DNA of 64,000 bases from Candidatus Moranbacteria bacterium GW2011_GWE2_35_2-. GTDB taxonomy: Bacteria > Patescibacteriota > Minisyncoccia > Moranbacterales > UBA9337. Below the pieces are notes generated by a model. It was given only the letters and a program-made list of their open reading frames with translations. It had not been told where the DNA came from and searched no databases. Positions 3,195-61,502 of this stretch are shown here, in pieces. Location: positions 79,504 through 143,503 of the forward strand of contig LBQD01000003.1 of NCBI GenBank assembly GCA_000990585.1. The letters run 5' to 3'. The stretch's first letter is position 1. Each line of letters opens with the position of its first letter. The position numbers were made by a program, and so were the translations under genes.

Positions 3195-3884
3195 ATGAAA
3201 AAAGGAAAATTTATTGTGCTGGATGGAACCGACGGTAGTGGAAAAGCTACGCAGACAAATATTTTAGTGAAAAAATTAAAGAAAGAGGGAAAAAAAGTGA
3301 AAACCATAGATTTTCCTCAATATAAGGATAATTTTTTTGGAAAAATGATCGGAGAATGTTTAGTTGGGGATTATGGAGATTTTATTGCAGTTGATCCTCA
3401 TATCGCTTCAGCACTATATGCTGCGGATAGATGGGAATCGAGTGAAATGATAAATAAATGGATAAGTAACGGATATATTGTAATAGCTGACAGATACACC
3501 AGTTCAAATCAGATTCATCAAGGAGGGAAAATAAAAGATTCAAAAAAGAGAAGAGAATTTCTAAAATGGTTGGAAAAAATGGAATTTGAAGTTCTTAGGA
3601 TTCCAAAACCGGATGCGATTGTCTATTTAGATGTTCCCTATGAAATTACAAAAAAATTATTGCAAGAAAAAAATGCTATAAATAAGAAAAAATATTCTAT
3701 TGGAAAAAAAGATTTGGCTGAAAATAACAAAAAACATCTCAGTGATTCAAGGAAAAGTGCAATAAAATTAGTCGGGGAATGTAATAATTGGATTAAAATA
3801 GATTGTGTTAAAAAAGGAGAAATGATGAGTATTGAAGAAATAAACGAGATTATTTGGAGTAAAGTTTCAAAAATTGTAAAATAA
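3195..3884 (+). CDS. tmk: thymidylate kinase
   Basis: FIVLDGTDGSGKATQ P-loop typical of dTMP kinase. About 229 aa. Confidence 0.85.
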   Translation: MKKGKFIVLDGTDGSGKATQTNILVKKLKKEGKKVKTIDFPQYKDNFFGKMIGECLVGDYGDFIAVDPHIASALYAADRWESSEMINKWISNGYIVIADRYTSSNQIHQGGKIKDSKKRREFLKWLEKMEFEVLRIPKPDAIVYLDVPYEITKKLLQEKNAINKKKYSIGKKDLAENNKKHLSDSRKSAIKLVGECNNWIKIDCVKKGEMMSIEEINEIIWSKVSKIVK

Positions 3885-4251: not shown

Positions 4252-5733
4252 ATGAAATACAAGGCGACAATTGGGATGGAGATTCATGTGGAGCTTAAGA
4301 CGGCTTCTAAGATGTTTTGTGGGTGCAAAAATGGACTAGGGCTGGAAAAAAAGCCGAATGTGCACATTTGCCCGGTTTGCACGGCGCAGCCCGGGACGCT
4401 TCCCGTGCCTAACCAAAAAGCGGTTGAATTTGTGCAATTGGCGGGATTGGCTTTGAATTGCAAGTTGCGAGAACAATCCAAGTTTGACCGCAAAAACTAT
4501 TTTTATCCCGACATTCCAAAAGGTTATCAAATTTCTCAATATGATCAGCCGCTGTGCGAGAGGGGAGAATTAAGAATTAAGAATAATGAATTAAAGGAAA
4601 AAAAAATCGGGATTACTAGAATTCATTTAGAGGAAGATACTGGAAAACTTATTCATCCGAAAGGAACGGATTATACTCTGGTGGATTTCAATCGCGCAGG
4701 AGTGCCCTTGATGGAGCTGGTGACTGAACCGGATTTTGACGGCGGAGATGAAGCGAGAATTTTTTGTCAAAAACTTCAACAAGTTTGCCGATATTTGAAT
4801 ATTTCCGATGCGGATATGGAAAAAGGAAATATGCGTTGTGAAGCAAATATTTCACTGTATAAAGAGGGAGAAGACAAATTGTCGGGAACAAAGGTAGAAG
4901 TAAAAAATATCAACTCTTTTAAATTCGTGGAAAAAGCGATTAATTTTGAAATCAAAAGACAATCGGAAGAATTGGAAGCGGGAAAAAAGATTGTGCAGGA
5001 AACGCGAGGGTGGGATGCCAATCGAAACGCGACAGTTTCACAAAGGAAAAAAGAATCAGCACATGATTATCGATATTTTCCTGAGCCGGATATTCCTCCG
5101 ATGGAATTTACAACTGAATATTTTGAAAAATTGCGCTTGAATCTTCCGGAAATGCCGGCGGAAAAATCCAAGAGATTTTCCGAGCAGTATAATCTTGCAT
5201 CCGACGCTGTGGAACTTTTGACTGGCGATCGTGATTTGGCGGATTATTTCGAAAAAACAGTCAGTGAACTCGAGGAAAAAATTTGCTCCAAGGAAATTTC
5301 CTGTGAAAAGAAAAAAGCGGTGAAATTGGTGGCAAATTATATTAATACCGAATTGCGAAAACATCTGACGGAAGGTGGGCATTCAATTCGCGATATTCAA
5401 ATTACCCCGGAAAATTATGCCGAGTTTATTGGAATTGTGGCGGAAGGAAAAATCAATTCCAGCGCGGCACAGACAGTTCTCAAAGAAATGTATCGAACCG
5501 GGGGCGACCCATCACAAATTATCGAAGAAAAGAATTTGATGCAAATGGAAGATGACACCGAATTGGAAAAAGTCATCCATGATATTTTGGTAAAAAATCA
5601 GCAATCCGTGGATGATTTCAAGGCCGGAAAAGACCGAGCTTTGCAATTTTTGGTTGGACAAGTTATGAAAGAAACAAAGGGTAAGGCTAATCCGGCTAAG
5701 GCAATGGAATTTATTAAAAAGATTATCGCATAG
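4252..5733 (+). CDS. gatB: Asp/Glu-tRNA(Asn/Gln) amidotransferase subunit B
   Basis: N-terminal GMEIHVEL...CGC...CPVC motif region. C-terminal YqeY-like tail. 493 aa. Confidence 0.9.
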   Translation: MKYKATIGMEIHVELKTASKMFCGCKNGLGLEKKPNVHICPVCTAQPGTLPVPNQKAVEFVQLAGLALNCKLREQSKFDRKNYFYPDIPKGYQISQYDQPLCERGELRIKNNELKEKKIGITRIHLEEDTGKLIHPKGTDYTLVDFNRAGVPLMELVTEPDFDGGDEARIFCQKLQQVCRYLNISDADMEKGNMRCEANISLYKEGEDKLSGTKVEVKNINSFKFVEKAINFEIKRQSEELEAGKKIVQETRGWDANRNATVSQRKKESAHDYRYFPEPDIPPMEFTTEYFEKLRLNLPEMPAEKSKRFSEQYNLASDAVELLTGDRDLADYFEKTVSELEEKICSKEISCEKKKAVKLVANYINTELRKHLTEGGHSIRDIQITPENYAEFIGIVAEGKINSSAAQTVLKEMYRTGGDPSQIIEEKNLMQMEDDTELEKVIHDILVKNQQSVDDFKAGKDRALQFLVGQVMKETKGKANPAKAMEFIKKIIA

Positions 5734-5853: not shown

Positions 5854-5883
5854 ATATTACCATATTTCGTAATATGGTAATAT
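5854..5883. terminator. perfect 13-bp-stem palindrome between convergent gatB and miaA. Twin copy at 61475-61502
   Basis: ATATTACCATATT-TCGT-AATATGGTAATAT, followed by a T-run. Confidence 0.6.
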
Positions 5884-6816
5884 TTATTTTTCAATAAAAC
5901 GGGAAACTTCTTTTTCAATATTTGCGTACTTGTTTTTTTCTTTTTGCTCGATTGGAATCCAGATAATTCTTTTGTCTTTTGCAAACCAAGTTCTTTGACG
6001 TTTGGCATAATTTTTTTCTGCCAGGTATATTTTTTCTTTTAATTCCTCTTTGTTTTTTATGTTTCCTTTTAAGTACTCCGGAATTAAGTTGTAACTAAGT
6101 CCAAAGCTTTGGATTTTTTTCCAACTCAGTTTGTATTTTTCATGCAAATCTTTCACTTCTTCAATCATTCCCATTGAAAATCTTCTGGTGACATTTTTTT
6201 TTATTCTTTCATTTAATTCTTCTTTTTCTCTTGCTATACCTATTTGTAAAAAATCATAATTCTTAATTTTTGATTCTTGATTCATGGGTGGGACTTTCCC
6301 GATGGCTTTGCAAATTTCTATTGCTCGAATTAATCTGACTTTATTTTTAGCATCAATATTTTTCGCTCTTTCCGGATCCAGTTTTTTTAATTTATTAAAA
6401 AGGATTTCCGTGCTTAATTCTTGCATCTTAATTCTTAATTCTTGATTTGGTTTTACTTCCGGAAAATCCACGTTGTCGACAAGCGCTTTGATCCAAAATC
6501 CGGTTCCGCCACAAATGATCGGAACTTTGCCGCGCTTCAAAATATCCTTGATTATTTTCTCGGTTTTCTTTTTGAATTTGGCGGCGTTATATTCCGTTTT
6601 TGGCGAGGCGATATCAAGCATATGGTGCGGAACCATTTTTTGTTCCGCTTCGGTTATTTTTCCAGATCCGATGTCCATTCCGCGGTAAATCTGTCGTGAG
6701 TCAGCGGAAATTATCTCACCATCAAATTTTTGCGCAAGCCGAATTGCCACATCCGATTTTCCGGAAGCAGTAGGACCGAGGATGACGATTATTTTATTAT
6801 CGCTTCTAAATTCCAT
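5884..6816 (-). CDS. miaA: tRNA dimethylallyltransferase
   Basis: IVILGPTASGKS P-loop. IPP-transferase family length and motifs. Confidence 0.9.
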   Translation of the reverse strand: MEFRSDNKIIVILGPTASGKSDVAIRLAQKFDGEIISADSRQIYRGMDIGSGKITEAEQKMVPHHMLDIASPKTEYNAAKFKKKTEKIIKDILKRGKVPIICGGTGFWIKALVDNVDFPEVKPNQELRIKMQELSTEILFNKLKKLDPERAKNIDAKNKVRLIRAIEICKAIGKVPPMNQESKIKNYDFLQIGIAREKEELNERIKKNVTRRFSMGMIEEVKDLHEKYKLSWKKIQSFGLSYNLIPEYLKGNIKNKEELKEKIYLAEKNYAKRQRTWFAKDKRIIWIPIEQKEKNKYANIEKEVSRFIEK

Positions 6817-8351
6817 ATGCTTGCCTTGGTGATTTTTGCTTTTATTATTTTTCCGATGAGATTTTTTGACTCCGACGTTTTGTCGGAGTGAAAATTGGGT
6901 ACAATTTTCACATTTTTCATTGTGCGGGTTTTGCCGAAATAGTTTCCGTTTTTTTTGTTTTCAATCAAGACTTCTAAAGTTTTTCCGACATATTTTTTGT
7001 TATTTTCAAAACACGTTTTCTTGAGAATTTCGTTGAGATAATTTGCTCTTCTTTCTTTTTCCATTTTACTGACGTTATCTTTCATTTTCCAGGCGGCAGT
7101 TTGCGGGCGGGGGGAGAATTTTCCGAAAAATACCATATCGAATTTCGCCTTGCGCATCACTTCGGCGCTATCTTCAAATTGTTTTTTGGTTTCTCCCGGA
7201 AAGCCAACGATAATGTCGGAAGTGATTGAAAATGGAACAGCGGGTTTGTGTTTCTTGAATGCTGATTTTATTTTGCGGACTTTTGTCAGATATTCTTTCT
7301 GGGTATATTTTCGGTTCATATTTTTCAAAACTTCGTCGCAACCGGCTTGAATGGGAAGATGGAAATTTTCGCAAACCTTTTTGCATTTGGCGACCGTTTC
7401 AATCATTTCATCAGTCACGTCTTTCGGATGATTGCTCACAAAACTGATCCAAAATTTTCCGGGAATCGCGTTGATTTTTTTCAGGAGTTGGGGGAAATTT
7501 ATGCTATCGTTCTTGACCCCCTCTGTCCTCCGGACATCTCCCCCTTGGAAAGGGGGAGAGGGTAAAGAGGGGGATTTGTATGAATTCACATTTTGTCCGA
7601 GCAGGATGATGTGCTTTGTTCTATTTTTTATCAATTTTTTTATTTCGGAAATTATTTCATCTGCCATGCGGGAAACTTCGCGTCCGCGGGCGTAGGGAAC
7701 AACGCAGTAGGCGCAAAAATTGTTGCAGCCGGTCATTATGGGGACGCCGGCTTGAAATTTATCGGAGTATTTTGGGGTAATCGAAAAATAGGAAGTATTA
7801 TTTTTGCGGGTTGTTAATTCAGGATACGCCGGAATTTTCAATTTTTCCGCCAAAGGCGGACCAGCCTTGGGCTGGCAATTTACAATTTTTCCGCCAAAGG
7901 CGGACCAGCCTTGGGCTGGCAAACAATTTTCAATGACAAATTTTTCAAACTTTTTGAATCCATTGATTGGGAAAAATAGGTCTACTTTGTTTTTCAATCT
8001 TCTTTGCACATCCGGTCTGTTTGCCAAACATCCTGTCAATATGATTTTAATTCTTGATTTCTGATTCTCGATTCCTGATTCTTGATTCCTGTCTCTCAGA
8101 TTATGTATTTGTCCATAAACCCGGTCTTCTGCCATTTGTCGCACTCCGCAGGTATTAAAAATAACCAAATTGGCGTCATTGATGTTTTTGGTTTCTTTAA
8201 ATTTTTGAGACGACAAAAATCCAGCGATTCTTTCGCTGTCGCTGTAATTCATTTGACACCCGAACGTTTTTATGTAATACTTTAGCATTGAAGTTGTTTG
8301 AAAAATAAATAGTAGTTTTTTCAGCATATCAAAAATTGACCCTAAAATCAA
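6789..8351 (-). CDS. miaB: tRNA-i6A37 methylthiotransferase (radical SAM MTTase) with in-frame repeat insertions
   Basis: MTTase N-domain (KTFGCQMN). Radical SAM CNNFCAYC. TRAM-like C-terminus. About 70 aa longer than usual because of repeat-derived insertions. Confidence 0.85.
   Translation of the reverse strand: MILGSIFDMLKKLLFIFQTTSMLKYYIKTFGCQMNYSDSERIAGFLSSQKFKETKNINDANLVIFNTCGVRQMAEDRVYGQIHNLRDRNQESGIENQKSRIKIILTGCLANRPDVQRRLKNKVDLFFPINGFKKFEKFVIENCLPAQGWSAFGGKIVNCQPKAGPPLAEKLKIPAYPELTTRKNNTSYFSITPKYSDKFQAGVPIMTGCNNFCAYCVVPYARGREVSRMADEIISEIKKLIKNRTKHIILLGQNVNSYKSPSLPSPPFQGGDVRRTEGVKNDSINFPQLLKKINAIPGKFWISFVSNHPKDVTDEMIETVAKCKKVCENFHLPIQAGCDEVLKNMNRKYTQKEYLTKVRKIKSAFKKHKPAVPFSITSDIIVGFPGETKKQFEDSAEVMRKAKFDMVFFGKFSPRPQTAAWKMKDNVSKMEKERRANYLNEILKKTCFENNKKYVGKTLEVLIENKKNGNYFGKTRTMKNVKIVPNFHSDKTSESKNLIGKIIKAKITKASIWNLEAIIK
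7516..7578. repeat. GC-rich palindromic module (TCTCCCCCTT-GGA-AAGGGGGAGA) inserted in frame in miaB
   Basis: Perfect 10-bp arms. Locally GC-rich in an AT-rich gene. Encodes SPSLPSPPFQGGDVRRTEG. Related module in the DGR RT at 18009-18050. Confidence 0.7.
7842..7926. repeat. two tandem copies of a 44-bp GC-rich unit inside miaB
   Basis: TTTTTCCGCCAAAGGCGGACCAGCCTTGGGCTGGCAA occurs twice. It holds sub-palindromes CCGCC-AAAG-GCGG and CCAGCC-TTG-GGCTGG. The ORF stays open. Confidence 0.8.
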
Positions 8352-15468: not shown

Positions 15469-15802
15469 ATATTTTGTTTGAAATTTTCAATTTTCAATTT
15501 CGAAACAATTTTCAATGATTCAATCTTAAAATTTTAAAATTAAGACATTGTTTGTAAGTTGTAAATTAAAAATTGATAATTAAAAAGCCTCGCTATGAAA
15601 TAGCAGGCGTGGCAAAACGTAAAAACATAAATTTAAACACAGTATTTTATTCATATATTTATTCTCCCCATAGCCCAGGTTTCCCAACGGGTTTTGCAAG
15701 AAAAGTTTTTATATCTTTACTACCATTGTAGCAGGTTCCGGGAAAATAAAAAAGATTTTGCATTAAAAATCCTTTATTTAAGCCAAAAAACAATACGAAC
15801 GT

Positions 15803-15907: not shown

Positions 15908-16600
15908 ATGAGCCAAATAAAAAAGAGGTGTGTTATGTCGAAAAGCAAGAAGCAGGTTGAGGCGATTGTGTCGGCGATGGGAGTTTTCACGGCGATTATT
16001 TCCACTCTCGTTGAACTGGTCAAAAAGTTCGGCGGAACGATGGAAAACATCTATCGTTTGGCGATTCCGGAAGGGCTTGTGACCCTGGAGGAGGTTGCGC
16101 GGGTGATCGTCGGGGCTGTTAAAGTTAAAAACGAGTTTCTCTGCCTCATTTTCGGTGGTGAAAATCTCATTATCGACGAGTGCAATGGTCGTGAAATTCT
16201 TGCCGATGCCAGTGATGTATTTGACTGGATCGACAGCGATTTTCGGAGCTGGGGTGCGGATGAGCAGGGACCAGCTACTAAAAAAACTCCCGTTCAGGTT
16301 TACGAGCTGGAAAAGGATGGGAAATTTCCTCAGATTTACGGCGCGCATTCGTCTGATCTGGATAAGCTCTGTCTAACCCAGCACCAGATTAAAAAATTTG
16401 TGCAGAAGTGTCGCGATTGGTTGAGAACTGATGGATACGGAACGTTTTTCTTATTCAAATCCAAGGGACATTATTTCGTCGCCGGTGTGGGCTTTGATTC
16501 CGGTGGCAGGCTTTGGGTGAGCGTGCACCGGCTCGAGAATGTGTATGTCTGGGATGCCGAGAATCGATATCGCTTTGTGTTTCCGCAACTGGACATCTAA
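15908..16600 (+). CDS. DGR variable (target) protein, 230 aa, C-terminal VR
   Basis: Its 3' 116 bp is a near-copy of the downstream TR, with adenine-specific differences. Higher GC than the surroundings. Confidence 0.7.
   Translation: MSQIKKRCVMSKSKKQVEAIVSAMGVFTAIISTLVELVKKFGGTMENIYRLAIPEGLVTLEEVARVIVGAVKVKNEFLCLIFGGENLIIDECNGREILADASDVFDWIDSDFRSWGADEQGPATKKTPVQVYELEKDGKFPQIYGAHSSDLDKLCLTQHQIKKFVQKCRDWLRTDGYGTFFLFKSKGHYFVAGVGFDSGGRLWVSVHRLENVYVWDAENRYRFVFPQLDI
16475..16590 (+). repeat. DGR variable repeat (VR)
   Basis: 116-bp ungapped alignment to 16908-17023. 15 mismatches, 13 at TR adenines. Confidence 0.75.
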
Positions 16601-16907
16601 CACTTTGTCCTATTGTGGCGCTTTGTCCCTTGGACTCTTTGACGCTTCTGCGTTTTGAGTTCAAGGGATTTTTTTGTATAATAAAATTGCAATCCTGGAA
16701 ATATCCGCGGTCAAGGCTTCGGGTCAAGGTTGTTGGAAAAATATATTCCGGAATTTTGTCGGACAAGTCTTGCAAAAGAGTGAAGATATTTTTTTAAAAA
16801 TAAAAACAGACAGTTGGTGCGGTAAATTGGAGAACTTTTAGGGTTTCAAATAAAATTCAATCCAGAGAGTATTCAATGGATGGTGGTATTGATGATTTGC
16901 CGCATAC

Positions 16908-17023
16908 TTCGTCGCCAATGTGAACTTTAATTCCGATGGCAGGCTTAAGGTGAGCGTGAACCGGCTCGAGAATGACAATGTCTGGAATGCCGAGAATCGA
17001 CATCGCTTTGTGTTTCCGAAACT
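16908..17023 (+). repeat. DGR template repeat (TR)
   Basis: Noncoding copy of the VR. Variable positions are AAY/AAR codons (aat, aac, aat, aag, aac, gacaat, aat, aaa). Confidence 0.75.
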
Positions 17024-17036
17024 TTCTGTTTTTCTC

Positions 17037-17339
17037 TCATCCATTCGATGAGAGTTTTTTATCCAAACCTTTTTTCCAACCGCCAAGCATTCTTCCGATT
17101 TCTTCCAATTTCTCGGAAAGGTCGATATATTTTTCATTGGGAATAAGTTTGTTTTCCCAAGCGGTTTGAGTAAAAAATTTCAAAACATCCAGTCTGGAGA
17201 TAGTCTTGCTTAAAAATATTATTTTATGTTCCGGCGGGAGATATGAAGCAGTAAAGGAAAGTTCCAGGATTTCAAGAAAAAGATTGTCAACTTTTCTCCC
17301 AATTCCATAGCGTTCGGTCTTGGGAAAATCACGATGCAA
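17037..17339 (-). CDS. avd: Avd-like four-helix-bundle accessory protein (23S-IVS protein family)
   Basis: FPKTERYGIGRKV...NEKYIDLSEKLEEIGRMLGGW matches the FPKEEKYGL...MLNgLi pattern. The ORF probably extends upstream to a non-ATG start. Opposite strand to the RT. Confidence 0.55.
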   Translation of the reverse strand: MHRDFPKTERYGIGRKVDNLFLEILELSFTASYLPPEHKIIFLSKTISRLDVLKFFTQTAWENKLIPNEKYIDLSEKLEEIGRMLGGWKKGLDKKLSSNG

Positions 17340-17391
17340 AATTAACCAAAAAGAATAAGATTCTTTAAGCTTATGAATTACAACAGGGACG

Positions 17392-18429
17392 TTGCCGGGG
17401 GGGGGTTATAAAAGTCATAGTTTTGCTTTTCCGGACAAAAGCAAAAGTGCTTTTGATGGGAAAAATAAATTAAAAATTACATTTGAAGAAATCATATCTT
17501 TGGAAAATCTGCTGGAGGCTTGGAAAGAATTTGAAAAAGGAAAGAAAAACAGAAAAGATGTGCAGGAATTTTCAATGAATCTGATGGATAATATTTTTTC
17601 TCTCCATCAAGATCTTCTCAATCATACCTACAAACACGGCGGTTATCAAGCTTTCAAAATCAATGATCCCAAGCCTAGAGATATCCACAAAGCAAAAGTC
17701 AGGGACAGGCTTTTGCATCACGCCATCTACCGAAAACTCTATCCGTTTTTCGACAAAACTTTTATTTCCGATTCATATTCTTGCCGAATAAACAAAGGCA
17801 CACACAAAGCGATTGAAAAATTTCGAAAGTATTTTAACAAAGTAAGTCAAAACAACACGAAAACTTGTTATGTTCTCAAATGCGACATCAAAAAGTTTTT
17901 CGCCAGTATTGACCACGAAATTCTAATTTCAATCTTGAAAGAACATATTCCGGATGAAAATATTTTGTGGTTATTGGTGGAAATTATTGAAAGTTTTCAT
18001 ATTTCAAAACCCCTCCCCAGCCCTCCCCTTGAAAAGGGGAGGGGGATTGGACTGCCGCTGGGCAATTTAACCTCGCAATTGTTTGTGAATATTTATATGA
18101 ACAAATTTGACCAGTTCGTCAAACATAAACTGAAAGCCGAATATTACATTCGCTATGCCGACGATTTTGTGTTTTTGTCGCAAGACAGAAAATGGTTGGA
18201 AGATTTGATTCCAAGAGTCGGCAAATTTTTAGGCGATGAATTAAAACTCAAATTGCATCCGAATAAAGTTTACATCAAAACTTTTTCTTCCGGCGTGGAT
18301 TTTTTGGGAATAATCAATTTTCCGCACCACAAAATCCTGCGGACGAAAACGAAAAGAAGAATGATGAAAAAAATATTTCTCAATCATAAGATGTTGAGAG
18401 AGGGATTGATTTCAGAAGATAAATTTTAA
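17392..18429 (+). CDS. DGR reverse transcriptase
   Basis: RT domains with YADD (IRYADDFVFL). DGR-type motif IGLPLGNLTSQLFVNIYMNKFD. About 330 aa. Start uncertain and likely non-ATG. Confidence 0.85.
   Translation: MPGGGYKSHSFAFPDKSKSAFDGKNKLKITFEEIISLENLLEAWKEFEKGKKNRKDVQEFSMNLMDNIFSLHQDLLNHTYKHGGYQAFKINDPKPRDIHKAKVRDRLLHHAIYRKLYPFFDKTFISDSYSCRINKGTHKAIEKFRKYFNKVSQNNTKTCYVLKCDIKKFFASIDHEILISILKEHIPDENILWLLVEIIESFHISKPLPSPPLEKGRGIGLPLGNLTSQLFVNIYMNKFDQFVKHKLKAEYYIRYADDFVFLSQDRKWLEDLIPRVGKFLGDELKLKLHPNKVYIKTFSSGVDFLGIINFPHHKILRTKTKRRMMKKIFLNHKMLREGLISEDKF
17397..17405. repeat. G9 homopolymer between divergent avd and RT
   Basis: gccGGGGGGGGGtta, unusual in an AT-rich genome. Lies in the 5' region of both genes. 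Confidence 0.8.
18009..18050. repeat. GC-rich palindromic module (CCCTCCCCTT-GAA-AAGGGGAGGG) inserted in frame in the RT gene
   Basis: Perfect 10-bp arms. Encodes PLPSPPLEKGRG just before the conserved IGLPLGNLTSQ motif. Confidence 0.7.
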
Positions 18430-19515: not shown

Positions 19516-20205
19516 ATGGAAATAGCAACATTTGATTTGGAAAAAAAACTTCTTGGCAAAGGGTATGGATTTGTTATTGGGGTGGATGAGGCGGGGAGAG
19601 GACCACTTGTTGGACCCGTTGTGGCTTGCGCGGCAACTCTTAAGAATAATGAATCAGGAATCAAGAACCAAGAATTAAAAGAATGGGATTTGGTGCGGGA
19701 TTCGAAAAAACTTTCTGCCGGACAACGGGAAAAGGCTTTTGATTTTGTTTTGGAAAATTTTCACGTTGGCATCGGGATTTGCGATCACGAAACCATTGAC
19801 CGAGTGAATATCTTAGAAGCATCATTTCTTGCAATGAAAATTGCCTTAGTAGATTTGAATTCAAAATTAAAAAATTATAAATTGAATAAAAATTCAAAAT
19901 TCAAAATTCAAAATTACAAGCAAATTTTGCTTGTAGATGGGAATAAGAAAATTCCCAATTTTTCCGGTGAGCAATTGGCGGTGGTCGGAGGGGATAAGAT
20001 CGTCAAATCGATTTCGGCGGCGTCGATTGTCGCTAAAGTGACCAGGGACCGAATGATGATGGAAGCGCACGAGAAATACCCTCAGTATCATTTCGACAAA
20101 CATAAGGGCTATGGCACTAAAATCCACATGGAATCGCTCAAACAATACGGACCTTGTGAAATTCATCGGAAATCCTTTGCTCCGGTTAAAAAAACGTTAA
20201 AATAA
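19516..20205 (+). CDS. rnhB: ribonuclease HII
   Basis: GVDEAGRGPLVGPVV, DSKKLS, LVDGN and a C-terminal KHKGYG. Carries in-frame low-complexity insertions. Confidence 0.9.
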   Translation: MEIATFDLEKKLLGKGYGFVIGVDEAGRGPLVGPVVACAATLKNNESGIKNQELKEWDLVRDSKKLSAGQREKAFDFVLENFHVGIGICDHETIDRVNILEASFLAMKIALVDLNSKLKNYKLNKNSKFKIQNYKQILLVDGNKKIPNFSGEQLAVVGGDKIVKSISAASIVAKVTRDRMMMEAHEKYPQYHFDKHKGYGTKIHMESLKQYGPCEIHRKSFAPVKKTLK

Positions 20206-21135: not shown

Positions 21136-21305
21136 AAAATAGCTTTTTTGATAATTTATAATTAATTTACCAAGGAAACAAGAAACAAGGACACAAATAA
21201 TATTCAAATTACAGTATTTAATTATTAAAAAATAATTTGGAAGTCGGTTATTATTTAATTTGTATCTTTTATCTTGCATCTTGCATCTTGTTTCTTTTTA
21301 AAGAA

Positions 21306-42874: not shown

Positions 42875-42987
42875 GATTAATTATCAATTTTAAATTTTCA
42901 AACAATTTTCAATAACTCAATGAATTAATTTTAAAATTAAAAAATTAGATATTGTTTGAAAATTTAAAATTTGAAATTAGAAATTTA

Positions 42988-43968
42988 ATGCAAAGTATTC
43001 ACAAAACGGTTTTACTAAGGGAAGCGATAGAAAATTTACAATTAAAAAGAGGAATGGTGGTTGTGGATGCGACTTTGGGCGGGGGCGGACATTCTCGCGA
43101 AATTATAGATAAAATTGGAGAAGCAGGAATTTTTGTAGGTTTTGATAGAGATATTAGTGCCTTGGAAAAGTTTGCGGAATTTCCAATTTATAATTTCCAA
43201 TTTCCAAATGATTCGCAAATACCGATATTTAAGAAAGATAATATTTATTTGGTTAGTTGCAATTTTTCAGAGATAAAGAAGGTTTTAGAAATTTTAAATT
43301 TTAAAGAAGTTGATGCAATTTTAGCGGATTTTGGACTATCATCCGATCAATTGGATGATGCCGATAGGGGATTCGGTTTTATGTCTGATGGACCGCTTGA
43401 TATGCGGATGAATAAAATTGATACGAGTCAAAAAACAGCGGCGGATGTGGTGAACAATTATTCCGAGCACGCTCTGAAGCGAATAATAAAAGAATATGGT
43501 CAGGAAAATTATTCCGGCAGTATTGCCAGGAAAATTGTTAAAACTCGCGCGGAAAAAAAAATCGAAACAACAGGAGAATTGGTGAATGTGATTGCAGGAT
43601 CGGTTCCGGGAAAATATCGTCATAGAAAAATTCATTTTGCAACCAGAACGTTTCAAGCGCTCAGGATAGAAGTGAATAATGAATTGGAAAGTATCGAGAA
43701 ATTTTTACAAGATTCAATAGATATTTTGAAAAAAGACGGAAAATTGACAGTGATTTCTTTTCATTCGGGAGAGGATCGGATTGCAAAAAATATTTTTCGG
43801 GAAAATGCAAGGGGATGCATTTGTCCGAAAGAATTTCCAGTTTGTCGTTGTGGAAACGAGCCACAAATAGAAATAATCACGCGCAAGCCGATTGTTCCAT
43901 CGGAAGAAGAAATTAATAAAAATCCGCGTTCAAGGAGCGCTAAACTCCGAGTAATAAAGAAAATATAA
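42988..43968 (+). CDS. rsmH: 16S rRNA (cytosine1402-N4)-methyltransferase
   Basis: HKTVLLREAIENL...VDATLGGGGHS motif. Start placed at the ATG at 42988. Confidence 0.9.
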   Translation: MQSIHKTVLLREAIENLQLKRGMVVVDATLGGGGHSREIIDKIGEAGIFVGFDRDISALEKFAEFPIYNFQFPNDSQIPIFKKDNIYLVSCNFSEIKKVLEILNFKEVDAILADFGLSSDQLDDADRGFGFMSDGPLDMRMNKIDTSQKTAADVVNNYSEHALKRIIKEYGQENYSGSIARKIVKTRAEKKIETTGELVNVIAGSVPGKYRHRKIHFATRTFQALRIEVNNELESIEKFLQDSIDILKKDGKLTVISFHSGEDRIAKNIFRENARGCICPKEFPVCRCGNEPQIEIITRKPIVPSEEEINKNPRSRSAKLRVIKKI

Positions 43969-46179: not shown

Positions 46180-46225
46180 GATATGAATCAGGAAGCAGGA
46201 ATTAAGAATTAAAAATTGTTTATAT

Positions 46226-48254: not shown

Positions 48255-48289
48255 GGCGCTATCGTCTAGTGGCTAGGACGCCAGGTTCT
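48255..48289 (+). pseudogene. partial duplicate of tRNA-Glu 5' half (acceptor, D-arm, 5' anticodon stem and start of loop)
   Basis: 35/35 identity with 48599-48633. Fused after TTCT to the 32-nt module. Confidence 0.7.
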
Positions 48290-48321
48290 TCGCCCTAGCG
48301 GGCGACCACCCGTTAGGGTGG
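48290..48321 (+). repeat. 32-nt GC-rich two-hairpin module, copy 1 (copy 2 at 48696-48727)
   Basis: TCGCCCTAGCGGGCGACCACCCGTTAGGGTGG = hairpins CGCCC-TAGC-GGGCG and CCACCC-GTTA-GGGTGG. Identical in both copies. Confidence 0.8.
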
Positions 48322-48338
48322 CATCCTTTTGAATTTTT

Positions 48339-48593
48339 ATGTATTATACATATGTTTTAAAAAGTGAAGCGGACAATAATTTGTATATTGGGTATACTGG
48401 CGATTTGAGGCAACGAATAAAAGATCATAATCAAGGAAAAACCAAATCTATAAAACATAGAATTCCATTTAAATTGATTTATTATGAGGCATATAAAAAT
48501 AAGACGGATGCCAGAAAAAGAGAAATAGAATTAAAGAAGAATAATTATCAAAAAGAGCAATTAATAAAAAGAATAGAAAATTCATTGAGATAA
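48339..48593 (+). CDS. GIY-YIG domain endonuclease (URI-type small nuclease)
   Basis: YTYVLKS...LYIGYTGDLRQRIKDHN...Y.E motifs of the GIY-YIG fold. 84 aa. Confidence 0.7.
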   Translation: MYYTYVLKSEADNNLYIGYTGDLRQRIKDHNQGKTKSIKHRIPFKLIYYEAYKNKTDARKREIELKKNNYQKEQLIKRIENSLR

Positions 48594-48598
48594 TGTTC

Positions 48599-48670
48599 GG
48601 CGCTATCGTCTAGTGGCTAGGACGCCAGGTTCTCATCCTGGTAACCGGGGTTCGATTCCCCGTAGCGCTA
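48599..48670 (+). tRNA. tRNA-Glu (anticodon CUC)
   Basis: GGCGCUAUCGUCUAGUGGCUAGGACGCCAGGUUCUCAUCCUGGUAACCGGGGUUCGAUUCCCCGUAGCGCUA. Glu-type D-loop. Anticodon loop UUCUCAU. Confidence 0.85.
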
Positions 48671-48685
48671 CAAAAATATGTATTA

Positions 48686-48748
48686 GGGGGGGTTCTCGCC
48701 CTAGCGGGCGACCACCCGTTAGGGTGGGATTCCCCGTAGTCGCTGCCA
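48686..48748 (+). other. tRNA-Glu T-arm/3'-acceptor-like fragment interrupted by the 32-nt module, ending in CCA
   Basis: GGGGGGTTC-[module]-GATTCCCCGTAGTCGCTGCCA against tRNA-Glu CGGGGTTCGATTCCCCGTAGCGCTA. Confidence 0.6.
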
Positions 48749-56150: not shown

Positions 56151-57287
56151 ATGAAAATTGCGATTCAGGCGGCGGATTTGGATAACAAGCGGATAGACGG
56201 AACCAGGGTTTATCTTTTGAATTTGCTAAAATATTTCGGAAAAATTTCTCCCGAGGATGAATTTTTAATTTATCATCGAAAAGAATTTAATCCAGAATTG
56301 ACTCCGAAAAATTTTTCCAATTATAAGATAAAAAGAATAACTTCTCCTTGTTTTTGGACGCAAACAAGGTTCGCAGCTGAGGTTTGGAAGGATAATCCGG
56401 ATGTTTTATGGATGCCGATGCATAATATTCCCTTAATACGAAAAAGAAAATTGAAAACAGTGGCGACCATTCATGATTTGGCGTTCAAGATTTTTCCGGA
56501 AAGTTTTCCGACAAAAGATTTACGACAAATCAATTTCTTGACAGATATAGCGATTAGAAATGCGGATAAGATGATTGCTATATCGCATTCGACAAAAAAT
56601 GATATTTTGAAATTTTATTCGCAAATTGACAAGCGCAAGATTAAAGTAATTCATCACGGTTTCGATATGGAATTATTTCAAAAAGAAATTCCGGAAAGCA
56701 AATCAGCAGAGGTTTTTTCAAAATTCAAAATTCAAAATTCAAAATTTATTTTGTATGTTGGCGCCGTTCAGCCGCGAAAAAATTTGGAAACTTTAATTTG
56801 GGCGTTTGAGAAATATAGAAATGAGCAACGAAAAAAAATAAACAATGGACAGCAGGTGAAATTGGTATTTGCTGGAAGTAGGGCGTGGATGTGGGAGCGA
56901 GTAATTGAAAGAGTGGAGAATAGTCCGTTTCGGGATGACATCATTTTGACTGGCAGAGTGGATTTTTTAACTTTGGCGACGCTTTATCGCAACGCCGGTT
57001 TATTTGTTTTTCCTTCTTTATATGAAGGGTTCGGAATTCCGGTTTTGGAGGCGATGGCATCGAAAGTTCCGGTAATTTGTGCCGACAATTCCAGTTTGAG
57101 AGAAGCAGGAGGCGAGGCGGCTGAATATTTCCATTCTTTTGATCCAAGTGAATTAGCGGAAAAAATAGAAAAGATTTTTAGTGATGATGAAATGAGAAAG
57201 TCTATGATTGAAAAAGGAATAAAACAGGCGGAAAATTTTTCATGGGAAAGATGTGCGCGGGAGACTTTGGAATGGTTGAAGTGCTAA
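56151..57287 (+). CDS. glycosyltransferase family 4
   Basis: C-terminal GT4 motifs (ILYVGAVQPRKN, FPSLYEGFGIPVLEAMA). Confidence 0.75.
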   Translation: MKIAIQAADLDNKRIDGTRVYLLNLLKYFGKISPEDEFLIYHRKEFNPELTPKNFSNYKIKRITSPCFWTQTRFAAEVWKDNPDVLWMPMHNIPLIRKRKLKTVATIHDLAFKIFPESFPTKDLRQINFLTDIAIRNADKMIAISHSTKNDILKFYSQIDKRKIKVIHHGFDMELFQKEIPESKSAEVFSKFKIQNSKFILYVGAVQPRKNLETLIWAFEKYRNEQRKKINNGQQVKLVFAGSRAWMWERVIERVENSPFRDDIILTGRVDFLTLATLYRNAGLFVFPSLYEGFGIPVLEAMASKVPVICADNSSLREAGGEAAEYFHSFDPSELAEKIEKIFSDDEMRKSMIEKGIKQAENFSWERCARETLEWLKC

Positions 57288-60564: not shown

Positions 60565-61221
60565 ATGACTAATAGCGTAAATATGGCTCAAAATAAGCAA
60601 AAAATTGGAACATTCTTGTTGGCGGGGTTTTTGTTGGCGGCTTTGTCGTTTCTTTTTTTGGTCGTGAGTCAGAAAAGTTTCAAGGCTTCTACTGATTATT
60701 TGGTGGTGCCGACCGGCGGGGAGGACTCAAAAGATTTTTATTCCGTGTTCAAATCAGCTGAATATGTGAACCGAGTTTTAGGGGAAGTTGTGTATAGCGA
60801 GCTTTTCATTGATCAAGTGGTTAAAACCGGAGAGGTGAATGGTGAATTTCTTCCTTTTGATCGAAAAGAAAGATTGGAAGAGTGGAGTAATCGGGTGAAA
60901 GTAGGCGGAAAATTTCAATATGGAATCGTGAGTTTTGAAGTTTTTGCCAATAGTCAAAAAGAAGCGGTGCAAATTTCCAATGCGATTGCAAAAGTAATGG
61001 AAGCCGGAGGAAGCGTGCTGGATGGAAAGGCTGATTTGCACGTGCAAATTTTGACGGGGCCGATTTGGGAAAAAAATCCGAGCGTCAAAGAAATAGTTGC
61101 TGTCGTGATCGGAGGGTTTTTGGTTGGTGTAATTTTGAGCGCGATGTGGGCGTATTATTTTGCAACAATGGGATTGCCACGGGAAGAGAAGGAATATTTA
61201 GAGAGTTTGAATGAACTTTAA
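60565..61221 (+). CDS. Wzz-like (two-TM, periplasmic domain) hypothetical protein
   Basis: TM near the N-terminus and at the C-terminus (VIGGFLVGVILSAMWAYYFA). Confidence 0.3.
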   Translation: MTNSVNMAQNKQKIGTFLLAGFLLAALSFLFLVVSQKSFKASTDYLVVPTGGEDSKDFYSVFKSAEYVNRVLGEVVYSELFIDQVVKTGEVNGEFLPFDRKERLEEWSNRVKVGGKFQYGIVSFEVFANSQKEAVQISNAIAKVMEAGGSVLDGKADLHVQILTGPIWEKNPSVKEIVAVVIGGFLVGVILSAMWAYYFATMGLPREEKEYLESLNEL

Positions 61222-61474
61222 ATTAAGAATCAAGAATTAGGAATCAAGAAGTGAGAATTAGGAATTGGAGTTTAGATAGAAAAATTTTCTTGGTGGAAGT
61301 GGTGAGTTGTTTGGAAATTGGTATGTTTTTTTTGAAACATATTCTTTCGAAGCTCACTCTTCCGCTTGGAAGTTCCAAGTGTTGGATATATTTTTTTGCA
61401 CATTAACTCACGGTCGTGAGAAAATGTGCTATAAAATAAGTTGTCTTGACAACTTAATAGGTAATCAATACAAA

Positions 61475-61502
61475 CATTACCATATTTCGTAATATGGTAA
61501 TG
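61475..61502. repeat. second copy of the 26-bp perfect palindrome ATTACCATATTTCGTAATATGGTAAT
   Basis: Identical to 5856-5881. Confidence 0.85.

Follow-up and report, generated by a model that had tools for sequence, protein, structure and literature searches.

How can a conserved gene take up repeat DNA at several places and still be read from end to end? The question is raised by miaB in a stretch of 64,000 nucleotides from Candidatus Moranbacteria bacterium GW2011_GWE2_35_2- (contig LBQD01000003.1, positions 79,504 to 143,503), which as a whole is called the window here and to which all coordinates refer. An initial annotation, made from the sequence alone, had proposed that miaB retains its frame despite three repeat-derived insertions. 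The gene proved to be intact, and there are four such sites, a lengthened loop in the TRAM domain (6861-6899) having been missed. Our reading, to which we assign a probability of about 0.8, is that miaB remains functional and has taken up several pieces of repeat DNA, which are located in four of its surface loops. Part of this DNA is a 30-nt GC-rich double hairpin, termed E below, two copies of which lie in the linker that connects the MTTase domain with the radical-SAM domain.

The open reading frame (ORF) at 6789-8351 on the minus strand is present, as the initial annotation had it, but its start is not the right one: position 8351 marks an upstream TTG, and translation almost certainly begins at the ATG at 8288 (MLKYYIKTFGCQMN), which is also the start used by the orthologues and by the identical database protein P0001. 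The coding sequence at 6789-8288 (minus strand) specifies 499 amino acids (aa); the P0001 record, identical to this product, groups eight member sequences. All three Pfam domains of a MiaB protein were found, UPF0004 at the N-terminus, a Radical_SAM core with the CxxxCxxC motif, and TRAM. The motif reads CNNFCAYC and occupies residues 188-195, Cys47 and Cys87 in the N-terminal part are invariant, and all cluster cysteines are conserved. By sequence, the nearest solved structure is that of Bacteroides uniformis MiaB (7mjv, E=1e-60), and the AlphaFold2 model of the product, with a predicted local distance difference test score (pLDDT) of 85.5, has MiaB 7mjz as its top fold match. Directly downstream of miaB lies miaA. 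Nearly all named MiaB homologues come from Candidatus Moranbacteria/Moraniibacteriota, members of the Patescibacteria or Candidate Phyla Radiation (CPR); the GC content of the window is about 0.33-0.45.

To delimit the inserted residues, the product was aligned with orthologues (118 MiaB proteins, at least 56% identity, 416-509 aa), among which it ranks near the top in length. The estimate that it is about 70 aa longer than usual was close: relative to the shortest versions, four variable loops contribute 9, 38, 21-22 and 8-9 aa, or about 76-78 aa together. Length variation across the 118 proteins is concentrated in few loops, including two or three further hot spots that are unoccupied in the window protein, and the extra segments are absent or shorter in other Moranbacteria-type MiaB proteins. 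The gaps that appear in the alignment with the solved B. uniformis MiaB fall at the same loops. In the AlphaFold2 model, which otherwise matches solved MiaB, each of the four sites lies in coil where the pLDDT drops (residues 128-164, below 50; 241-260, 57-68; 469-472, below 50).

Site 2, the inter-domain linker (7831-7949, minus strand), is an AT-rich heptamer array, or H element, hosting the two copies of E. It measures 58 aa, at the upper end of the range of 20-58 aa (median 38) across the 118 orthologues. The background array reads GTCATTGAAAATTGTTTG AAAATTG TAAATTG AAAATTG AAAATTC. E itself, CCAGCCCAAGGCTGG|TCCGCCTTTGGCGGA, consists of CCAGCC-CAA-GGCTGG followed by TCCGCC-TTT-GGCGGA, each hairpin having a 6-bp stem, and its predicted fold as DNA has an energy of -11.9 kcal/mol (z = -4.5). 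The exact 30-nt core is present twice in the linker, with 0 occurrences expected by chance. Copy 1 (7890-7919, minus strand) is read as PAQGWSAFGG; copy 2 (7846-7875, minus strand), 14 nt away and identical over its 30 nt, is read in another frame as (C)QPKAGPPLAE. AT-rich sequence of the linker type also occurs between genes of the window, at 15503-15519 (exact match) and 42900-42916, and flanks E in the loci L105, L055, L085 and L070. H elements form inverted pairs upstream of genes in the intergenic regions 15477-15586 and 42877-42983, where they are possibly promoter-related, and elements of this type host E in other Moranbacteria genomes.

The initial annotation had described this segment as two tandem 44-bp GC-rich units. 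A repeat of period 44 does exist (7833-7922, 2.0 copies, 97% identical), and the near identity of the two 44-nt units is what a single tandem duplication of E plus 14 nt by slippage would produce; tandem arrays of E+7 or E+8 moreover occur in L033, L024 and L123. However, 44 is not divisible by 3, and such a duplication predicts six heptamers after the first junction, where four are seen, the same number as in P0013, which is empty, and in P0027, which has a single copy. In addition, E occupies only the first junction in P0027 and only the second in P0005 and P0017. The single duplication was rejected on the heptamer counts, and we consider it quite unlikely; the segment is better described as two 30-nt insertions in an older heptamer array.

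The state of the same junctions in related genes shows how E arrived. The junction of copy 1 is filled in P0027 and empty in P0002, P0004 and P0013. When P0013 and P0027 were aligned as DNA, equal heptamer counts were found on either side of the insertion point, so that the insertion comprises 30 nt without a target-site duplication. A 7-bp target-site duplication, which had been a candidate, was rejected, as empty and filled miaB alleles show none; the identical 7-mers flanking E result from insertion into a pre-existing array of period 7. The linker is thus an old heptamer array into which two separate, clean 30-nt copies of E were later inserted at TTG^RAAATT junctions. Insertion of E into hairpin loops was also considered and not adopted, the complementarity of the flanks being only about twice that of the control and mostly AT-rich.

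The number of E copies at the miaB linker differs between close relatives. The closest, P0002 and P0004 (83% and 79% BLASTP identity), have none, P0003 has one in the third frame, P0005 has one, P0017 has one in reversed orientation, and the window has two; the copies of P0005 and P0017 both sit at the second junction. Thus, orthologues that are 80-89% identical vary in these segments, with zero, one or two copies of E, in all three frames and once reversed. E is 30 nt long and, as read from the sequence, free of stop codons in all six frames; therefore, every insertion keeps the reading frame. Since E occurs in three frames and both orientations at one linker, and also in unrelated genes and intergenic sites, it must have been inserted at the level of DNA with the frame kept.

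These observations also bear on the reading that the extra segments are native, lineage-specific loops of MiaB, or else assembly artefacts. Sites 1 and 4 are common to the window protein and its two or three closest orthologues, which would fit native loops. Against this, one and the same DNA serves as coding sequence in three frames and both orientations, the 30-mer is found in unrelated and intergenic sites of more than 100 assemblies from independent studies, and the identical protein was recorded independently (P0001, with its eight member sequences). This explanation can hardly be right.

In the window, no other copy of E was detected at up to three mismatches, and the only other element of its kind is a double hairpin that differs in sequence, present at 48290 and 48696 (see below). 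A genome scan, in which one genome per species was searched and an exact match to the first 21 nt of E was required, nevertheless located it at 119 or more stretches, nearly all labelled as Patescibacteria metagenome-assembled genomes (MAGs). The classes represented among the matches listed are Moran-, Wolfe-, Nomura-, Sacchari-, Berkel-, Levy-, Falkow-, Uhr-, Komeili-, Magasanik-, Yonath-, Giovannoni-, Azam- and Taylorbacteria. The only isolate among the matches listed is Kribbella, where the second hairpin is lacking. No copy of E was found in IMG/VR, and phage as a vector of E was rejected on this ground.

In 0.94 Mb of fetched DNA, 128 members of the E family were identified, with at least 1-4 exact-core copies per assembly. 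Free variation is confined to loop 2; in the stems, a change on one side is compensated on the other, as in CCCGCC/GGCGGG, TCAGCC/GGCTGA, CCAGCT/AGCTGG and CCACCC/GGGTGG. When pairing was not made a search condition, 55 stem changes were compensated and 30 broken, the latter being mostly spurious partial matches. Pairs of copies from the same assembly share the loop-2 variant in 62% of cases, compared with 21% expected (permutation p < 0.0002). This likeness within assemblies, together with the patchy presence of E among close miaB orthologues, indicates propagation within genomes. E is a family that has spread through the Patescibacteria, maintaining its stems and propagating within genomes.

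The flanks of the family follow the consensus AAATT[C/G] | E | AAA[A/T]TT, in which the preference for TT[C/G] on the left is loose. Near-identical flanking 7-mers (at least 6/7) accompany 23% of the copies but only 0.6% of control positions. Taken together, these two properties of the flanks show that E lies in register within heptamer arrays. Within one genome, E-bearing arrays share longer flanks (L031/L103; L051/L055/L070). A nested insertion was noticed in L080 (539-568), where E is inserted exactly in the loop of a common palindrome, TCCCGC-GAAA-GCGGGA, a repeat of the 'SFPRKRES' type. The literature, searched by subject as well as with the DNA string and its translated peptides, yielded no account of E, its sequence or its peptides, and none of in-frame hairpin insertions in CPR genes; the family appears to be undescribed.

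About 45% of the E copies lie within long ORFs. Ten E-bearing ORFs were sampled and all ten were real genes, encoding PolA, Obg, a glycosyltransferase, two O-antigen-ligase-like proteins, ArgRS, a class-V aminotransferase, FtsK, SMC and PheT. Coding copies use both orientations equally, whereas the frames are used unequally and are skewed to PAQGWSAxGG, SAxGGPALGW and QPKAGPPxAE: the readings rich in Gly, Pro, Ala and Ser account for 21, 17 and 10 copies, compared with 5, 3 and 2 for those rich in Arg and Leu. Such a bias is what selection on a translated peptide would give, which argues, indirectly, that the inserts are translated. The DNA of E would then be expressed as loops of 10 aa in which Gly, Pro, Ala and Ser abound, and selection may leave only those copies that fall in disordered loops or linkers.

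An alternative in which the protein would not be longer at all is that the inserts are excised at the RNA level. Insertions in CPR rRNA genes leave the transcripts and some of them encode GIY-YIG proteins (PMC11270868), and E, too, occurs in tRNA-derived sequence. It is difficult to reconcile with excision, however, that every coding copy keeps the frame and that E is stop-free in six frames, that there is a strong frame bias to loop-friendly peptides, and that heptamer arrays within ORFs shift by 21 nt. Furthermore, the E-bearing tRNA pieces are fragments adjoining intact genes and not interrupted genes, and E had no match in Rfam at either gathering or E-value thresholds, neither to an intron nor to any other RNA family. 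RNA-level removal is, in our estimate, very unlikely, and putative translation of the inserts is the reading preferred here.

Site 1 (8042-8091, minus strand), in the loop between the helix 51-70 and the strand 81-86, is an in-frame (GAATCAR)n heptanucleotide array. The initial annotation had correctly recognized a low-complexity repeat at 8040-8100; counted among palindromic insertions it was misplaced, for it is a tandem array and not a palindrome. Tandem Repeats Finder assigned 6.9 copies of period 7 to 8042-8088, encoding RDRNQESGIENQKSRIKI. The loop is 18 aa long in the window protein and 9 aa long in 36 of the 118 orthologues (range 9-26 aa), and in P0004 it is shorter by exactly 21 nt, that is, three heptamer units. 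The same heptamer family occurs in the intergenic regions 46181-46218 and 61221-61266, and in frame in miaA and in rnhB, the gene of RNase HII (19642-19675). Altogether, 21 arrays of period 7 were counted in the window, as opposed to a mean of 2.9 in shuffled sequences, an excess of about sevenfold. AT-rich heptanucleotide arrays are thus over-represented, and within ORFs their length shifts in steps of 21 nt. Further arrays were noted at 4566-4594, 6259-6283, 6413-6447, 19858-19916, 21260-21296, 43178-43207 and 56717-56746, and many arrays are in frame in genes (gatB, miaA, RNase HII and others), where they give low-complexity peptides with a periodicity of seven residues.

Site 4 (6861-6899, minus strand) lengthens the TRAM loop by 8 aa (PNFHSDKTSESKN): the loop has 17 aa in the window protein and 9 aa in 97 of the 118 orthologues (range 8-22 aa). 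It contains the hairpin CTCCGAC-AAAA-GTCGGAG (6870-6888), and the z-score of its fold is -4.7. P0004 has a different palindrome, SPSPSGRGVRGEG, in place of the window hairpin, and the corresponding unit CCCTCGCCCTCCGGGAGAGGGGTTAGGGGTGAGGG (SPSPSGRGVRGEG) is found three times within 1.3 kb of the P0004 locus, in two miaB loops and in miaA. In the closest relatives this GC-rich palindrome was seen at positions 3610, 4252 and 4872 of L002 and 3658 and 5146 of L004; the miaA position that holds it there is occupied by a heptamer array in the window. An AT-rich hairpin, ATTACCATATTTCGTAATATGGTAAT, was noticed in two copies in the window (5856-5890 and 61467-61501, 86% complementary over 35 nt), one of them just 3' of miaA; these may be terminators or another small repeat family.

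Site 3 (7517-7573, minus strand) is a nested C5/G5 palindrome within the extra residues 238-262 (7503-7577), after QNVNSY. Its outer stem, CCCCCTC/GAGGGGG, encloses two hairpins, a small one and the inner palindrome TCTCCCCCTT-TCC-AAGGGGGAGA at 7537-7559, which is the GC-rich palindrome that had been reported after LLGQNVNSY. The fold energy is -19.2 kcal/mol (z = -3.3). The loop is 27 aa long in the window protein and 6 aa in 35 of the 118 orthologues (range 5-39 aa), corresponds to an insertion of 13-16 aa relative to 7mjv, and carries different palindrome-like peptides in other orthologues. The 23-nt palindrome has no other copy in the window at up to three mismatches. A related C/G palindrome, CCCTCCCCTTGAAAAGGGGAGGG (18021-18043, plus strand), lies in frame (KPLPSPPLEKGRGI) in the gene of a reverse transcriptase (17392-18429). 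Site 3 can be placed in a loose class of C5-6/G5-6 palindromes, 20 of which were found in the 0.94 Mb of fetched DNA; the one in the reverse-transcriptase gene is among them, and P0005 has one at a different miaB loop. When metagenomes were scanned for the nested form, only five loose relatives were returned, one in frame in a uvrC-like ORF and three beside a conserved box of RNase P RNA (the loci concerned are L125, 258-294, for the uvrC-like ORF and L126-L128 for the RNase P RNA GAGGAAAGTCCGGGC box, at about 4314-4350 in L126). The notion of a tight family was rejected on account of these five matches in favour of a class of similar palindromes. We infer that the palindromes of sites 3 and 4 are members of looser classes that behave like E. 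The expectation that all three segments originally listed match non-coding repeats of the window was therefore borne out for the heptamers and for the AT-rich flank of the second segment, and failed for the 30-nt GC-rich unit and the 23-nt palindrome.

The double hairpin mentioned above is a 32-nt variant of E, designated E' (CCACCC-TAAC-GGGTGG|TCGCCC-GCTA-GGGCGA), whose stem differences from E are compensated. It occurs in two identical copies on the minus strand of a cassette at 48255-48748. The first (48290-48321) follows a 5' fragment of tRNA-Glu (nt 1-35; 48255-48289) and is located just upstream of a gene for a small GIY-YIG nuclease of 84 aa (48339-48593, plus strand; Pfam PF01541, E=5.7e-17), which lies between the two copies; then come the intact tRNA-Glu(CUC) (48599-48671) and a T-arm/acceptor fragment of the tRNA, split by the second E' (48696-48727). 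The same layout with tRNA-Ser is present in L007, L016, L022, L101 and L114. Six loci have the order 12-13-nt tRNA 5' fragment, E, GIY-YIG, intact tRNA, and in six of the seven loci having such an ORF it is within about 105 nt of E. A role of E as a tRNA intron or split-tRNA signal was rejected: next to every E-bearing piece ARAGORN detects an intact tRNA, the piece itself being a truncated copy. GIY-YIG was the sole recurrent gene neighbour of E that was found, TnpA (Y1/HUH) and the REP-associated tyrosine transposases (RAYT) not having been searched for. The GIY-YIG nuclease is the candidate partner of the E family.

How, then, might E spread? It would be non-autonomous and could be copied in trans by a transposase or a structure-specific nuclease, the best nuclease candidate being the small GIY-YIG protein of the tRNA-linked cassettes, or by homology between heptamer arrays. 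Because E-bearing arrays share longer flanks within a genome, homology-driven copying would explain both the clean insertion in register and precise loss. We favour a mix of nuclease-driven and homology-driven routes, with a putative mobilising activity. A more far-reaching proposal is that E and its variants (E') are the cis element of a new Patescibacteria-specific mobile system, probably driven by the adjoining GIY-YIG protein, which would place double hairpins of 30 nt at AT-rich heptamer junctions and in genes of structured RNAs. This we put forward tentatively and ourselves regard as doubtful. If true, it would explain the cassettes with tRNA fragments, the excess of heptamer arrays at least in part, and the 10-residue insertions in housekeeping proteins throughout the phylum.

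A competing view is that E is a signal useful to the host (protein-binding, recombination or regulatory) and kept by selection, the coding copies being tolerated by-products. Its near-invariance across deep lineages of Patescibacteria at low copy number would fit this view, as would the maintenance of the stems through compensated changes and the recurrence at tRNA/GIY-YIG cassettes and at intergenic heptamer arrays near gene starts. In contrast, copies are gained and lost between near-identical orthologues, and E is found in both orientations, at arbitrary positions in essential genes and at no consistent position relative to genes. We rate the host-signal explanation as unlikely.

Several points weigh against our interpretation of E as mobile DNA absorbed into genes. 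E is also found at array-free sites (PolA, SMC, FtsK), which are beyond homology-driven copying, and a purely selfish element with vertical inheritance does not account for its near-invariance across deep lineages at a low number of copies per genome. Most copies have no GIY-YIG gene nearby, and to our knowledge GIY-YIG enzymes are not transposases. Frame preservation and frame bias are all that speaks for translation of the inserts, and the ORF-based assignment of copies as coding is heuristic, with false positives at least in L013 and L059. The palindrome of site 3 has no close copy, the metagenome scan having yielded only five loose matches. The copy numbers and the taxonomic range, deriving from an exact 21-mer scan, are biased lower bounds. 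Finally, about one quarter of the matches listed bear non-CPR labels in third-party MAG records. These labels, part of which were checked, are probably wrong: the assembly CAZRJL01 holds the Moranbacteria-type MiaB P0005, others have flanks identical to those of Moraniibacteriota loci, and their GC content (0.32-0.56) is in the range of the CPR-labelled loci. Records that look mislabelled include Bdellovibrionales, Gammaproteobacteria, Pseudomonadales and Micavibrio (e.g. L013, L014, L016, L022, L024 and L029).

Among known elements, the closest analogues in scale are the small dispersed repeats (SDR) of cyanobacteria and the GC clusters or double-hairpin elements of mitochondria. The SDRs of heterocystous cyanobacteria, described in 2008 by Elhai and colleagues, reportedly are 21-27 nt long, hairpin-forming, apparently mobile and mostly non-coding; they are said to be often nested in larger repeats, in genomes rich in heptameric short tandemly repeated repetitive sequences (STRR). 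E resembles them as a tiny, mobile-looking hairpin repeat nested in repeats of heptamer-rich genomes, and differs in lineage and sequence, in being frequently intragenic and in its far wider conservation. The GC clusters and double-hairpin elements of fungal mitochondria are short, GC-rich sequences in AT-rich genomes, sometimes in frame in coding regions; they are similar to E in scale and in the form of the GC-rich (double) hairpin, but organellar and unrelated in sequence. Elements of the IS200/IS605 type have hairpin ends, transpose as single-stranded DNA and make no target duplication. A hairpin at each end, no target duplication and a weak preference for a left-flank motif recall them, which is suggestive only, since E is far smaller than any described derivative and its neighbour gene encodes a GIY-YIG nuclease. 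Miniature inverted-repeat transposable elements stand apart, as E consists of two adjacent independent hairpins, not of terminal inverted repeats, and lacks a target duplication.

The Rickettsia palindromic elements (RPEs), to which the initial annotation had compared the miaB insertions, comprise about ten palindromic families of approximately 100-150 bp, confined to Rickettsia and each encoding a conserved peptide (Ogata et al. 2000 as summarised in PMC10969869); they lie between genes and in frame in unrelated housekeeping genes, at positions compatible with the fold (PMC10969869). The parallel was a good one, E being present in three frames, in both orientations, in unrelated genes and in more than 100 assemblies. 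Like the RPEs, E is both intergenic and in frame in unrelated conserved genes, at positions that are tolerated (low-confidence coil in miaB); unlike them, it has 30 nt arranged in two separate 6-bp hairpins, is read in six frames and is phylum-wide. With units of 30 nt (E) and about 57 nt (site 3), a host among the Patescibacteria, and sequences that were not compared with the RPE consensus, the likeness is, by analogy, one of behaviour only and not of family membership.

The repetitive extragenic palindromic sequences (REP) and the doublets formed by them (REPIN) are GC-rich palindromes of 20-40 nt, extragenic, species-specific and present in hundreds per genome, with a GTAG or CGTC tag and RAYT transposases (PMC3116915; PMC3733652). 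E is comparable in being a GC-rich palindromic sequence of this size, probably non-autonomous, for which mobilisation through hairpins is proposed. However, E has few copies per genome, and about 45% of these are intragenic; its first bases are CCAG and its last GGCGGA, and neither GTAG nor CGTC appears in its flank profile. The rRNA genes of CPR bacteria contain non-intron insertions of hundreds of bases that are removed from transcripts, some of them bearing GIY-YIG genes (PMC11270868). E shares with these the phylum, the link to GIY-YIG and the non-intron insertion into structured-RNA genes; the paper describing them mentions neither a 30-nt hairpin element nor protein-coding targets (PMC11270868).

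Apart from these repeats, a diversity-generating retroelement was recognized at 15908-18429. It has its variable repeat (16472-16590) at the 3' end of the ORF 15908-16600, a template repeat at 16905-17023, in which all 15 of the 15 internal mismatches correspond to A in the template, and the reverse-transcriptase gene at 17392-18429.

Invasion of essential genes by selfish palindromic DNA, in frame, has so far been described mainly in Rickettsia and is now seen in the uncultured Patescibacteria radiation. With 30 nt, E is among the smallest mobile-looking elements known to us, and yet it is almost invariant throughout the phylum. Through E, a connection among hairpin elements, heptamer arrays, tRNA-gene cassettes and small GIY-YIG nucleases becomes open to testing. 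Elements of this type add to protein lengths, give rise to 'hypothetical' peptides and can mislead the alignment and annotation of CPR genomes. E is a concrete source of lineage-specific loop insertions in CPR proteins and a marker of recent genome change in MAGs.

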